Shown here one piece after another: positions 19,872 through 23,131 of a stretch of 64,000 nucleotides of DNA (its first letter is position 1; each line of letters begins with the position of its first letter). Position numbers and translations under genes: made by a program. Source of the DNA: an uncultured Eubacteriales bacterium. GTDB taxonomy: Bacteria > Bacillota > Clostridia > Oscillospirales > Acutalibacteraceae. The notes beneath the pieces were generated by a model, which did no database searches, was not told the DNA's origin, and saw nothing but the letters and a program-made list of their open reading frames with translations. The stretch lies in assembly GCA_948823415.1 (NCBI GenBank), contig CAQKRU010000003.1, forward strand, positions 7,798 to 71,797. The letters run 5' to 3'.

Positions 19872-19896
19872 TAATCATAGATTTTTAGCCATTTAA
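19872..19896 (-). repeat. Conserved 25-nt 5'-leader box, copy 1 (plus-strand TAATCATAGATTTTTAGCCATTTAA)
   Basis: One of six related copies in the 5' UTRs of family A genes. Confidence 0.7.
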
Positions 19897-19925
19897 CACA
19901 AAAACAACCCTCCTTACTGACTATA

Positions 19926-19955
19926 ATTATAATTCAGCAAGGAGGAACTTGTCAA
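19926..19955 (-). promoter_or_regulatory. Promoter of family A member 1; near-identical copy of the glyQS promoter
   Basis: 36 bp (19928-19963) are identical to 19207-19242, including TTGACA-N18-TATAAT. Confidence 0.65.
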
Positions 19956-19959
19956 TTGC

Positions 19960-20253
19960 CTAGCATATGGCGCAGCAACCTTTCTGGAAGCGAGTTTTAG
20001 TTTTGACAGAGGGATAAGCTTGGTTGTACATTGCGTCGACCCATCTTTTAAAAGCGGCTAGTTCATCATCTTTATCTTCTTGAGAGGCAGCGTCATCTAC
20101 TGGAGGGGAGTTCGTAAAGCTGGTTGTAGATTCACCATCCTTAGCAGTACTGGCGCTATGGTAACAGCAGATGCTTAATGCGCTAATCAAGCTAATAAGG
20201 CACATCAAAACGGATGCAACAGACTTCTTATTTTCTGAATTAGAATTTAACAT
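19960..20253 (-). CDS. Small exported protein, family A member 2; C-terminus ...KGCCAIC*
   Basis: Starts MLNSNSENKKSVASVLMCLISLISALSICC. RBS context AGGAGAttatttttATG. Confidence 0.65.
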   Translation of the reverse strand: MLNSNSENKKSVASVLMCLISLISALSICCYHSASTAKDGESTTSFTNSPPVDDAASQEDKDDELAAFKRWVDAMYNQAYPSVKTKTRFQKGCCAIC

Positions 20254-20302
20254 AAAAATAATCTCCTAACAAGTTTTAGATTTTGGGTTTAGAAATAGTA
20301 AA

Positions 20303-20327
20303 TAAATGCAGAATTTTTTCCACTTAA
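20303..20327 (-). repeat. 5'-leader box, copy 2 (diverged, about 19/25)
   Basis: TAAATGCAGAATTTTTTCCACTTAA, at the equivalent distance upstream of the member 2 start. Confidence 0.45.
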
Positions 20328-20392
20328 TGATATAAAAAAGGGACCCCATTTGCAGCCTGGACTTATGCAAACGGATAAAAAGATAAATCAGG

Positions 20393-20725
20393 CTACTGCG
20401 GACTGCAGTTGCCGTTAAGATAGTTTTTGTGACGAACCATCTCAAGAAAAATTGCAGCGTTAAGAGGCATGGTTTCTGGCTTTCTTGATTTATCATCAAA
20501 AATTTGTTCTTGCTCGTTTTCACCAGGAGGGTCGCTATAAGCGTATGTGTGCATAAAAGGAAAATCATCTTCTGACTCCGCTTCATTATCTCGCAGAATT
20601 GTATCCCTAACGGCTACTGCACTGTTACGAAGGCAACAACCGAAATTTAGTGCAGAAAATAAAACTGCAAAGCACATCAAAACGGATGCAACAAACTTCT
20701 TAATATCTGAATTAGAGTTTAACAT
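20393..20725 (-). CDS. Small exported protein, family A member 3; C-terminus ...NGNCSPQ*
   Basis: ATG at 20725 after AGGTGG. The N-terminus MLNSNSDIKKFVASVLMCFAVLFSALNFGCC is homologous to member 2. Confidence 0.65.
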   Translation of the reverse strand: MLNSNSDIKKFVASVLMCFAVLFSALNFGCCLRNSAVAVRDTILRDNEAESEDDFPFMHTYAYSDPPGENEQEQIFDDKSRKPETMPLNAAIFLEMVRHKNYLNGNCSPQ

Positions 20726-20773
20726 AAAAGTTACCACCTAATAAATTTTGAATTTTTAGTCAAAAACAGTGAT

Positions 20774-20798
20774 TATTTGTAGAATTTTAGCTATTTAA
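20774..20798 (-). repeat. 5'-leader box, copy 3
   Basis: TATTTGTAGAATTTTAGCTATTTAA. Confidence 0.55.
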
Positions 20799-20855
20799 TG
20801 ATATAAAAAGGGCCCCCATTTGCAGCCTGGACAGCATAGAGGAGGCCTATGTTAA

Positions 20856-21194
20856 TTAGAGTAAGATACATTTAGGGCAAAGATCTCCGCGCTTAGATTC
20901 TGGGGCTTCAGTAGACTCGGTTTTGTCCTCTTCTTCGTTATTTTTTTTTGTTTCGTCGTCTTTCTTATCCTCTTCATTATTTTCGTTTTCGTCTTCTTCG
21001 CCGTTCTTTTGCGTTTTTATTTCGGTTGTCGTTTCTTCATGATTGAAACCGTCATCTGTGCCTGAGTATTCTGCGCTGCAGAAGTTACCGCAAAAGCCGC
21101 AATTTAATGTGAAAAACAAAATTAAAAGGCTAAACAAAGCAGATGTAATCGAGATTTTCTTTTTTGCGTTGAAATGGAACATAAGATTTTTCAT
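20856..21194 (-). CDS. Small exported acidic protein, family A member 4; C-terminus ...KRGDLCPKCILL*
   Basis: ATG at 21194 after AGGTGG. Signal peptide ...NAKKKISITSALFSLLILFFTLNCGFCGNFCSA. Confidence 0.65.
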   Translation of the reverse strand: MKNLMFHFNAKKKISITSALFSLLILFFTLNCGFCGNFCSAEYSGTDDGFNHEETTTEIKTQKNGEEDENENNEEDKKDDETKKNNEEEDKTESTEAPESKRGDLCPKCILL

Positions 21195-21252
21195 AAAAAT
21201 TACCACCTAACAAATTTTAATATTTTTCTAAATAAGAAATAAAAAGAGCGAC

Positions 21253-21277
21253 TAATTGTAGATTTTTAGCCATTTAA
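21253..21277 (-). repeat. 5'-leader box, copy 4 (consensus TAATTGTAGATTTTTAGCCATTTAA)
   Basis: Direct reading. Confidence 0.7.
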
Positions 21278-21311
21278 CAGGACAGAAAAACCATCTCCTT
21301 TCGTTAAAGGT

Positions 21312-21340
21312 ATTATAGTTAGCAAAAGCACGCTTGTCAA
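21312..21340 (-). promoter_or_regulatory. Promoter of family A member 4 (TTGACA-N17-TATAAT)
   Basis: Minus strand reads TTGACAagcgtgcttttgctaacTATAAT. Confidence 0.65.
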
Positions 21341-21356
21341 CAGCTAAGCGCATAAA

Positions 21357-21764
21357 TTAGTTGGGAGATGCGCTTGCACAGGATTTGTTTTGATCTTTCT
21401 CTGTGCCAGTGTTAGTGAGATTTTGCCTGTAATCCTCTTCTTCGTTTGAATCCTCTAATGAGTAAAAATTAATTTCTTGCTCCGAACTCCGAAATTTTTA
21501 TAGTTCCGGAATTTCATTATCATTGACCTCTTCGGGCATAGGATTTATGGGCAGCCCAGAGGCATCTACGCCATTTTCATTGATAGGTGTTAGCGGTGTT
21601 TCGGGTTTATCTGCGTTGCCTTCGGTGATAGAATTTACCGGGAGCTCAGGAGCATCTACGCTAGCATTACAGCAAAAACCGCAGGACACTGCGCAGAACA
21701 AAATTAAAAAACTAAACAGAGCAGATATAATCGAGATTTTCTTTTTTGCTGCGAATCTTAACAC
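21357..21764 (-). pseudogene. Family A member 5, interrupted by one in-frame TAA (88 codons + stop + 46 further in-frame codons)
   Basis: GTG start at 21764 with signal peptide ...AAKKKISIISALFSFLILFCAVSCGFCC. TAA at 21498-21500. The same frame stays open to TAA at 21357-21359 and ends ...KSCASASPN*, a family-like C-terminus containing Cys. Confidence 0.5.
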
Positions 21765-21819
21765 AATTTATCACCTAACAGATTTAAAAATTTTCTAAAA
21801 GAGAAATAAGAAGAGTGAA

Positions 21820-21844
21820 TGATTGCAGATTTTTAGCCATTGGT
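21820..21844 (-). repeat. 5'-leader box, copy 5
   Basis: TGATTGCAGATTTTTAGCCATTGGT. Confidence 0.6.
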
Positions 21845-21877
21845 TTAGGGTGTAAGACAAATTGAAAAGTCGTTTAT

Positions 21878-23059
21878 TTAGTGTCGGGAGGGACAGCTAA
21901 AGTGATTATGCTTAGAATACAACACTGACGGAAAATCGTCGGCCTCGTTTCCGCCTGTTGCCCCAGGACTGTAAAAATAATAGGTGCTGGTTGGTTTAGG
22001 CTTGGAAGGAGAACCGCTTGTTTCTTTCCAAAGGCCTGCTGGGGGAGGGGGAATATCTGGTGCTTGCGCAAGAAGGTTAGGCGAGCCATCTCGATGGAAA
22101 GAGCCGCCTTCGCTGTAGGAAAAGTCATCATCAGAAGATGCCCCTCTTTTATCGTAAGGAAAAAAGGCAACAACATCAGAAGCACGTCTGGGTATCGGCA
22201 GCGATGACGGATGGATCGTCGTATTTGATAAATTTGATGTGTTAGGGAAGTTGCCAGCCCCTCTGTTGCCATAGGTTAGAATAATGTTATCTTCTTGACT
22301 ATGTTGAAATTTTGCCCTTTCAAAGGGATCGTCATTAAAACAATTAAAATCATAAGTTCTCTCTTGTGAATCGTTAAACTTTTTAAGAGTTTCTTGCTTC
22401 AAATCATCAAGATAATCAGACTCACTAGGATCGTTTTTTGGAGGATAATCTTCTAATAGCTCGTGCTCTGATTTTTTTGCTTCATAATAGTCAAGAGCAC
22501 TTTTATATCTTTCTTGATTTTGTGGATCATCAAACCGCCTTTCGGAAAGAGTTTTTGTTAAATTTGGGCGGTGAAAACTGAAATGCCCATAAAGGCTGTC
22601 CTCAAAGTCAAGTAAATTGAGGTCTTTTCGAAAGAATTCATCAGTTGAGGCAGGACGATCAACTGTATTGAGTGACAAATTTTGCGCTTCTTCCGCATCA
22701 TTATTTTGCAAACTTGTAGTCAAAGTGGGGAAGTCGTCATCTTCAAACATGATCCTTGGCTCAGTTTCATCATTTTGAAAATAGGTATCCCAAAGGTGGA
22801 ATTCGTCGCCTTCAAACATCATTCTTGCCGTAGCTTCGTCGTCAGGCAAACCGGTGTCCCAAAAAGGGAAGGCGCCATCTGCTGTGCCATTATTTTGGAT
22901 GCCAGCACCATCCGAAACATTGGGGTTTGATGAATACACCTTTATCAACAAAGTAGCGCTAACAAAATTTAACGTGACAAAGAGAATTGCGAGGCCCATC
23001 AACGCGGACGTAACGGATTTTTTCGTTCTTGCAAGGGAGACCAAAGTAAACTTTTTCAC
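21878..23059 (-). CDS. Exported protein, family A member 6 (393 aa) with repeated FP(F)WDT...MFE.D.F acidic motifs
   Basis: GTG at 23059 after GGGTGG. N-terminus VKKFTLVSLARTKKSVTSALMGLAILFVTLNF. The start is less certain than for the other members. Confidence 0.6.
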   Translation of the reverse strand: MKKFTLVSLARTKKSVTSALMGLAILFVTLNFVSATLLIKVYSSNPNVSDGAGIQNNGTADGAFPFWDTGLPDDEATARMMFEGDEFHLWDTYFQNDETEPRIMFEDDDFPTLTTSLQNNDAEEAQNLSLNTVDRPASTDEFFRKDLNLLDFEDSLYGHFSFHRPNLTKTLSERRFDDPQNQERYKSALDYYEAKKSEHELLEDYPPKNDPSESDYLDDLKQETLKKFNDSQERTYDFNCFNDDPFERAKFQHSQEDNIILTYGNRGAGNFPNTSNLSNTTIHPSSLPIPRRASDVVAFFPYDKRGASSDDDFSYSEGGSFHRDGSPNLLAQAPDIPPPPAGLWKETSGSPSKPKPTSTYYFYSPGATGGNEADDFPSVLYSKHNHFSCPSRH

Positions 23060-23106
23060 AACATTACCACCCAACAAATTTTTAAATTTTACGCGCCCCA
23101 AAAGGG

Positions 23107-23131
23107 TAATTATAGATTTTTATCCATTTAA
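23107..23131 (-). repeat. 5'-leader box, copy 6
   Basis: TAATTATAGATTTTTATCCATTTAA. Confidence 0.65.

Follow-up and report, generated by a model that had tools for sequence, protein, structure and literature searches.

A conserved box in the leaders of a clostridial gene array probably descends from the first codons of neighboring glyQS

A 64,000-nt stretch of contig CAQKRU010000003.1 (the window in what follows), from an uncultured Clostridia bacterium with a reduced genome whose nearest named glyQS relatives are metagenome-assembled genomes of the Oscillospiraceae/Acutalibacteraceae, contains an array of six small signal-peptide genes (19284..23059, minus strand), the products of which match no Pfam family. 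The array is flanked by a tRNA-Pro(UGG) gene and by glyQS, which encodes glycyl-tRNA synthetase. A copy of the same 25-nt box stands in the leader of each array gene, and the question that this locus raises is where the box came from and why it has been kept. A first-pass annotation took it for a shared regulatory site, such as an operator or the target of a small RNA. Our analysis points elsewhere. The box is very probably a fossil of codons 3–10 of glyQS, left at the junction of a promoter-capture duplication. As to what it may do now, we read it not as the site of a dedicated regulator but, tentatively, as a relic ribosome-loading/termination region that would act in cis on the mRNA. Taken together, glyQS origin and a role in cis make up what we regard as the best overall explanation, and a reasonably probable one.

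Results

On the gene (minus) strand the box reads TTAAATGGCTAAAAATCTACAATTA, and this 25-mer was the pattern with which we scanned the whole assembly (G000; 947 kb in 60 contigs, 84% complete). With up to three mismatches allowed, it was found at plus-strand positions 19872 (two mismatches), 20774 (three), 21253 (none) and 23107 (two), where dinucleotide shuffles lead one to expect 0.00 matches. With up to six allowed there are exactly six sites in the whole assembly, those at 21820 (five mismatches) and 20303 (six) being added and no further copy appearing on either strand; at seven mismatches unrelated AT-rich matches turn up. The six copies of the first-pass annotation, and its division of them into four that are nearly identical and two that are diverged, are thus borne out, but the genome-wide search that it recommended yields nothing beyond them. 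All six are direct copies in the leaders of co-oriented genes (19284–19829, 19960–20253, 20393–20725, 20856–21194, 21498–21764 and 21878–23059), with 42–58 nt between the 3′ end of the box and the start codon. They are c1 in the leader of gene1 (23107..23131, TTAAATGGATAAAAATCTATAATTA), c2 (21820..21844, ACCAATGGCTAAAAATCTGCAATCA), the consensus copy c3 (21253..21277), c4 (20774..20798), the most diverged copy c5 (20303..20327) and c6 (19872..19896), the last preceded by a relic Shine-Dalgarno (SD) sequence (AAGGAGGG) and GTG. All lie on the minus strand, and their most constant part is (A)ATGGCTAAA ... CAATTA. In c1, c3 and c6 the 5′ end of the box lies 29–35 nt downstream of a perfect TTGACA-N17/18-TATAAT promoter, which agrees with the earlier statement that the box follows the −10 wherever a promoter is visible. 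The c2, c4 and c5 units have no intact promoter; that of c4 is decayed (TTAACA, with the −10 deleted), and in this unit a hairpin and then U5 stand upstream of the box.

The repeat search returned a seventh, diverged copy of the box, and this copy overlaps the start of glyQS (17802..19178, minus strand; 458 aa, with PF00587 and PF03129). By repeat search, alignment, and BLAST, the box corresponds to glyQS codons 3–10 (TTAAACAGCGAAAAATCTATGG), which lie at 19148..19172 of the minus strand (TTAAACAGCGAAAAATCTATGGAAA). The likeness extends well upstream. A 43-nt stretch around the glyQS promoter (19205–19247) is 98% identical to that around the c6 promoter, and in BLAST the glyQS 5′ region and the c6 leader are 81% identical over ∼100 nt, from the −35 through codon 9. 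Alignment of the leaders with glyQS reveals homology at the −35, the −10, the 5′ untranslated region (UTR) and SD, an invariant T-run, the start codon, and the box; all units align with glyQS over the UTR/SD relic, the T-run, the relic start, and the box. Where glyQS begins ATG CTA TTA AAC AGC GAA AAA TCT ATG G, its family counterpart reads (GTG) TTA AAT GGC TAA AAA TCT AC. The glyQS promoter (TTGACA-N18-TATAAT, 19205..19234) and the promoter copies of c6 (19926..19955), c3 (21312..21340), and c1 (23167..23196), the latter two with diverged spacers, all score 12/12 and lie on the minus strand. The units share homology along the entire leader, with one another and with the 5′ end of glyQS, which makes the box one piece of a longer duplicated segment. 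The first-pass annotation, which missed this descent, had named a larger duplicated segment of uniform identity as what would speak against its own proposal; the larger segment is there, but its identity is not uniform.

The direction of transfer, from glyQS to the leaders, is clear because the glyQS N terminus is ancestral and widely conserved and the box is narrowly restricted. The N terminus (MLxNxEK[ST]MEKIV), together with its DNA, is conserved in other species, genera, and families. The box is present in three of the 15 species genomes searched for the genus, and contigs of two further lineages that carry it were obtained through a protein search. It is absent from 120 other genera of the family, which gave only single 3-mismatch chance matches, comparable to those of a reversed-pattern control, and a metagenome pattern scan returned 0 matches. 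In three members of the genus that have no array (G012, G014, and G009), tRNA-Pro lies ∼220 nt from glyQS and is divergent from it, and on this comparison that arrangement is the ancestral state. In the window the divergent tRNA-Pro(UGG) gene (23542..23618, plus strand) marks the ancestral neighbor of glyQS on the far side of the array.

At its other end the box meets a sequence of different history. Homology to glyQS stops at box position ∼21. The ribosome-binding-site (RBS) cassette, by which the c3 leader is homologous to family leaders elsewhere, sets in ∼8 nt past the box, which is thus the final piece of glyQS-derived sequence ahead of the fusion junction. The RBS block, a second conserved block of the leaders, lies at 21195..21221 in c3 (ATTAAAATTTGTTAGGTGGTAATTTTT) and at 19830–19856, 20254–20280, 20726–20752, 21765–21791, and 23060–23086 in the other units, all on the minus strand. 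RBS block and signal peptide also occur at 30.9–32.9 kb of the window and in G010, G001, G012, and others, a distribution that makes them, on sequence comparison, older and more widespread than the box.

As promoter capture would predict, we find copies of the donor's promoter upstream of the captured genes (three, compared with that of glyQS), a 5′ coding fragment of the donor at the junction, and the unduplicated ancestral state in relatives. We propose that a gene for a secreted protein, already equipped with the RBS and signal-peptide cassette of its family, was fused in a single small clade behind a duplicated 5′ end of glyQS. The duplicated piece would have comprised the glyQS promoter, 5′UTR, SD, start codon, and first nine codons. 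The fused unit would then have been amplified in tandem to 3–7 copies and later reshuffled by duplication, deletion, and recombination, with decay of some promoters; this order of duplication and amplification is what we infer from the units as they now stand.

A search with the gene6 protein, and retrieval of the contigs to which it led, gave further arrays, and all those recovered adjoin glyQS and carry boxes at the same place. Measured as divergence from G000 at glyQS fourfold sites, they belong to G005 (8%), to the L118/L119 lineage (12%) and to G003 (31%); L124 and L126, also with the array beside glyQS, have a glyQS 97–100% identical to that of G000. Absence of the box from orthologous loci, which the first-pass annotation had likewise named as damaging to its proposal, is therefore not what we see: the box is at the locus of every relative that has the array. 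The array with its box appears restricted to about four closely related lineages of one Clostridia genus. In G011, the region upstream of glyQS (L007, that is, G011:C6:1–569) matches that of the array-bearing L118/L119; the contig begins 429 nt upstream of this match, no box was found in the assembly, and the array is probably unassembled there.

The arrays vary from three to seven or more units, even among near-identical strains. L124 and L126 have two c6-type units each, and L126 has one c1-type unit (L126_c1b) that lacks both promoter and box; G003 has a promoter-bearing unit (G003_x) with an 837-aa gene and a decayed box. Other boxes are held closely: that of c1 is identical in G005 and L124, and that of c3 is invariant in G005, L124, and L126, its G003 copy having one substitution and a 1-nt insertion. 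In comparisons of orthologues, synonymous divergence (dS) is ∼0.8 for gene4 and gene5 versus 0.19 for glyQS, and the ratio of nonsynonymous to synonymous divergence is 1.1 for gene6; these values point to replacement of the mature protein parts or to diversifying selection on them. When the array (19284–23059) is set against L017 (G005:C1), L124, and L126, gene number and size differ and the leaders are ∼95% identical.

Against this background the box stands out. Among the six paralogues its mean pairwise identity is 0.78, versus 0.45–0.51 for the adjacent 25-nt segments and ∼0.45–0.52 for shuffles. In a between-class comparison of 28 distinct leaders from seven assemblies, the box reaches an identity of 0.72 and the RBS block one of 0.74, versus 0.36 in the promoter spacer, 0.28 from the −10 to the T-run, 0.43 over the T-run and relic start, 0.46 in the 8 nt after the box, and 0.38 in the spacer. 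The first-pass observation that the box is kept while its flanks diverge was therefore correct. The boxes of c1, c3, and c6 differ at only 2/25 positions, and their orthologues were already separate units before the split from G003; near-identity despite so old a separation indicates that the box has been kept either by selection or by short-tract conversion. Substitutions within it have no coding periodicity in either frame. The evidence for constraint has its limits, as the c1 leaders of G000 and G003 are ∼80% identical overall and 84% identical in the box, and the boxes of units c6a and c6b vary in the A-run and the TCT core.

Could this conservation be only apparent? A neutral relic might seem conserved through the low complexity of A/T-rich sequence in an AT-biased island with deletion-prone neighbors. 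Several of the differences between boxes are indeed G/C to A/T changes, the adjoining G/C-rich SD relic decays fastest, the spacer after the box is rich in insertions and deletions, and the boxes of G000 and G005 have diverged at a near-neutral rate. But the flanks, also 63–69% A/T, are at shuffle-level identity, and the 92% identity of the c1, c3, and c6 boxes contrasts with promoter spacers whose 5′ halves are randomized, in units that predate a split with 31% fourfold divergence. We consider neutral persistence very unlikely.

Recombination is harder to set aside. The box might be a block of homology maintained by short-tract gene conversion or unequal crossing-over, with no role in expression. 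The promoters of both c6 (19926–19968) and glyQS (19205–19247) carry GTTCC in G000, where G005, G003, L118, L124, and L126 have GTGCC or variants of it, and a private base common to the two copies points to a recent conversion or duplication event between units. At c2 the unit starts with the box itself: box and spacer together are 85% identical to those of c3 in the repeat search, the sequence upstream has no homology to other units, and the first bases of the c2 box also differ, all of which place a duplication boundary at the 5′ edge of the c2 box. Likewise, the G003 c3 leader is unalignable upstream of the box and conserved from the box onward. A recombining locus would also account for arrays that differ in how many and which genes they have, among strains with 97–100% identical glyQS, and for the high dS of gene4 and gene5. 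Weighing on the other side, 25 nt with mismatches are barely enough for RecA-dependent exchange, conversion should have homogenized the flanks as well, and inside the box no derived substitutions are common to the copies of one genome. Conversion or recombination of this kind and a factor acting in trans are the main rivals to our account; we judge the former unlikely. A specific recombination site, one of the possibilities in the first-pass annotation, is not supported either, as all copies are direct, there is no inverted core, and a GTTRRRY-like start is found in 2/6. Sites of the attC, dif, or vrs type would have an inverted-repeat core, which the box lacks; no search for a recombinase was made.

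The second main rival, that a trans factor binds the box as DNA or RNA and co-regulates the array, as an operator or an RNA-binding-protein site, is close to the first-pass proposal and has several observations in its favor. The box shows the conservation of a functional element, all its copies point the same way, and it persists in every array-bearing lineage; the three units with promoters have kept it best, at a fixed +25 to +50. Yet the 84%-complete assembly contains no other copy at six or fewer mismatches, so that the box does not mark a regulon. It is placed after the transcription start and is present in units without a promoter, three of the six; G003_x combines a promoter with a decayed box, and the L126 unit mentioned above has no box. 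In c6a and c6b the core varies (AAAATTCGC and AAATTTTAC, respectively) though the promoters are perfect. There is no supported dyad in the box, as the 6-bp pairing GGCTAA/TTAGTC is equaled in 87/500 shuffles and has no covariation, and no regulator gene was recognized among the neighboring open reading frames (ORFs), which were checked by eye only. A shared regulatory site is thus not supported, and binding by a trans factor seems to us improbable.

More specific candidates fared no better. A σ54 promoter (TGGC-N7-CTGCA) would fit only c2 and c5, and a loading site for a NusG paralogue, like ops, would need such a paralogue; both readings fail because no σ54 domain (Sigma54_DBD) and only a single NusG were found in this assembly. 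An internal σ70 promoter, with TACAAT/TATAAT in the box as its −10, has a plausible −35 (GTGCCA) only in c1 and its orthologues. Comparison by eye with known sites for CodY, cre, Fur, PhoP, PlcR, DnaA, the dif/XerD arm, the attC core, and IHF gave no convincing match and can serve only for leads.

If no protein binds the box, RNA structure might explain it, as a structured cis-regulatory element or as the target of an antisense RNA encoded elsewhere. The c3 copy and the copies of G003 can form a small hairpin (GGCUAA-N10-UUAGUC). Its covariation, however, does not exceed that of shuffles, RNAalifold on 14 leaders predicts 0 pairs, single-sequence fold z-scores range from −1.1 to +1.2 (eight leaders), and no Rfam family matched at E ≤ 1, tRNA being the only hit. 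The check for covariation across copies suggested in the first-pass annotation thus came back empty. As for an antisense partner, no complementary sequence was found elsewhere in the assembly at six or fewer mismatches on either strand. We regard this reading as largely refuted. A pairing of box with RBS that we noticed by eye (UAAAAAU/AUUUUUA) has no covariation and is not chosen by the minimum-free-energy fold.

What remains is a role that the relic could play where it stands. In the promoter-bearing units the leader, box included, is probably transcribed from these promoters, so that the box would lie at ∼+25 to +50 of the mRNA, within an unstructured, A/U-rich leader. We suggest that the relic SD and start would load a ribosome near the 5′ end, that the box forms the tail of this relic ribosome-loading region, supplying the TAA that closes the relic glyQS frame as well as a new ATG-GCT-AAA, and that its stop codons would close relic frames ahead of the true RBS. 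An SD or mini-ORF so close to the 5′ end may protect and insulate the message. Traces of such an arrangement can be seen. In c6, AAGGAGGG is followed after 8 nt by the mini-ORF GTG TTA AAT GGC TAA, in G003_x GGAGGTG is followed after 9 nt by ATG, four codons, and TAG, and c3 has an SD (AAAGGAGA) without a start. In c3, c6, G003_x, and c6a, an SD-like sequence stands near the 5′ end, apart from the one used by the main ORF.

Several observations weigh against this reading. The relic SD and start are not conserved: the SD-like sequence is absent from c1 and degenerate in c4 and c5, c3 has lost the start, and c4 and c5 have ATA in its place. Uniform ribosome loading therefore cannot explain why the box has been retained in all copies. 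The peptides of the upstream ORFs (uORFs) differ in sequence and in length (5, 7, 14, 17, and 23 codons). Between G000 and G005 the box, with eight differences in 148 nt, has changed as much as the remaining leader (∼5.8% overall), and both are close to the neutral 8% of glyQS fourfold sites; this comparison is uninformative on constraint because these leaders diverge at about the neutral rate. Finally, the box is decayed in G003_x despite its promoter and missing from L126_c1b. We hold a cis role as a relic ribosome-loading/termination region to be possible, and we put it forward tentatively. More doubtful still is that the relic has been co-opted as a cis-regulatory element in the full sense, a candidate site for an RNA- or DNA-binding factor or the start of a uORF or ribosome relay from ATG-GCT-AAA.

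The uORFs were also considered as conserved leader peptides, and rejected. Only two units, c6 and G003_x, give the mini-ORF in the glyQS frame (M[P]LNG*, with its TAA in the box) a working SD, and the uORF that begins at ATG-GCT-AAA has no SD within 12–23 nt and a length of 5–23 codons. In c3 (21199–21273, minus strand) and c2 (21768–21840, minus strand) a 17-codon uORF runs from the ATG of the box (MAKNLQLVALFISYLEKY and MAKNLQSFTLLISLLENF) and stops just short of the true SD; where G000 and G005 differ in it, the changes are non-synonymous, and in other units it has other lengths.

A further element adjoins the box. In RNA that reads through from upstream, the promoter spacer CCUCCUUGCUGA is predicted to pair with the UTR/SD UCAGCAAAAGGAGG, leaving the −10 in the loop and a U-run after the stem. 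This hairpin lies at 19187..19224 before glyQS (minus strand, with a U5 run at ∼19180–19184) and at 19909..19946 in c6 (minus strand), where the U-run is just upstream of the box. Fold energies are −21.3 kcal/mol for glyQS (z −2.9), −27.0 for c6 (z −4.5), and −29.0 for glyQS of G003 (z −5.7). The CCTCC of the spacer is missing from the glyQS promoters of species without the array. From its sequence, this single stretch of DNA would seem to end transcripts of the upstream unit and to start those of the next, terminator and promoter in one, with the box beginning just past the predicted point of termination. In its G+C-rich hairpin and U-run it resembles intrinsic terminators that overlap promoters; unlike these, it holds the −10 hexamer in its loop, and it adjoins the box and is not the box itself. 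A composite hairpin of the same kind is found in L018 at ∼2285–2325.

Discussion

The glyQS origin of the box, read from the alignments described above, is the new element here. The process that it implies has a close laboratory counterpart in the rnk-citT module of the Escherichia coli long-term evolution experiment, in which the promoter of a neighboring gene was duplicated in front of another gene (PMC5918244, PMC6614815). There, too, a truncated piece of donor coding sequence stands at the junction, as capture of the rnk promoter leaves a truncated rnk-citG fusion ORF upstream of citT (PMC5918244), the donor is intact downstream, and the unit was later amplified. The present case differs in being natural and old, in an uncultured Clostridia lineage, in having an essential tRNA-synthetase gene as donor, and in carrying the module at 3–7 units with unrelated mature protein parts. 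It also differs in that the relic at the junction is still conserved; we know of no such constraint on the rnk fragment.

A second comparison is with variable gene families that have conserved 5′ cassettes, such as the upstream homology sequence of Borrelia vsp/vlp and the vrs box of Mycoplasma pulmonis vsa. These share with the array a short conserved block before hypervariable coding parts, with breakpoints at the block. In the array, however, the copies are direct, every unit is complete in itself, down to the RBS, and several have promoters as well; we see here no expression site, inversion, or recombinase, the last without a dedicated search.

For a cis role the nearest precedent is in mRNA stabilization. 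In Bacillus subtilis, RNase J1 is blocked by ribosomes bound to strong 5′ SDs (PMC5737220). The STAB-SD and other 5′-proximal ribosome-binding stabilizers of mRNAs in Firmicutes (Agaisse and Lereclus 1996, cited in PMC5737220; hbs mRNA) have an SD near the mRNA 5′ end with no part in translating the main ORF, and the SDs of c3, c6, and G003_x sit upstream of genes with their own RBS. The array differs in that its conserved part is the 25 nt after the SD, and the SD relic itself is lost in c1, c4, and c5.

If our account is right, this locus would be a natural example of a process known mostly from laboratory evolution, in which an accessory gene gains the strong promoter of an essential gene, and the fused promoter-capture unit would here have become the building block of a fast-changing gene array. 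A conserved “regulatory box” would be explained by descent, a caution against calling such boxes operators. Should the relic prove to be co-opted, it would exemplify coding sequence turning into a leader element, and a hypervariable secretome array would be tied to whatever input the glycyl-tRNA synthetase mRNA receives at its 5′ end. All this concerns a small group, some four closely related lineages of a single uncultured genus.

Two further observations concern promoters and leaders more broadly. The G000 genome has 27 perfect TTGACA-N17/18-TATAAT promoters in 0.95 Mb, where its composition would predict ∼0.5; five are in this 4-kb locus, and several stand before tRNA genes. In G005 a second array of the family has, in the leader of its first unit (L017 ∼850–1000), TATAAT, AAAAGGAGG, ATGCTTTTGTAA, a box-like stretch, and an RBS. 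Its alignment with the c6 leader is borderline (score 31 versus 19.6 ± 3 for shuffles), and it may be another, older glyQS-derived leader.

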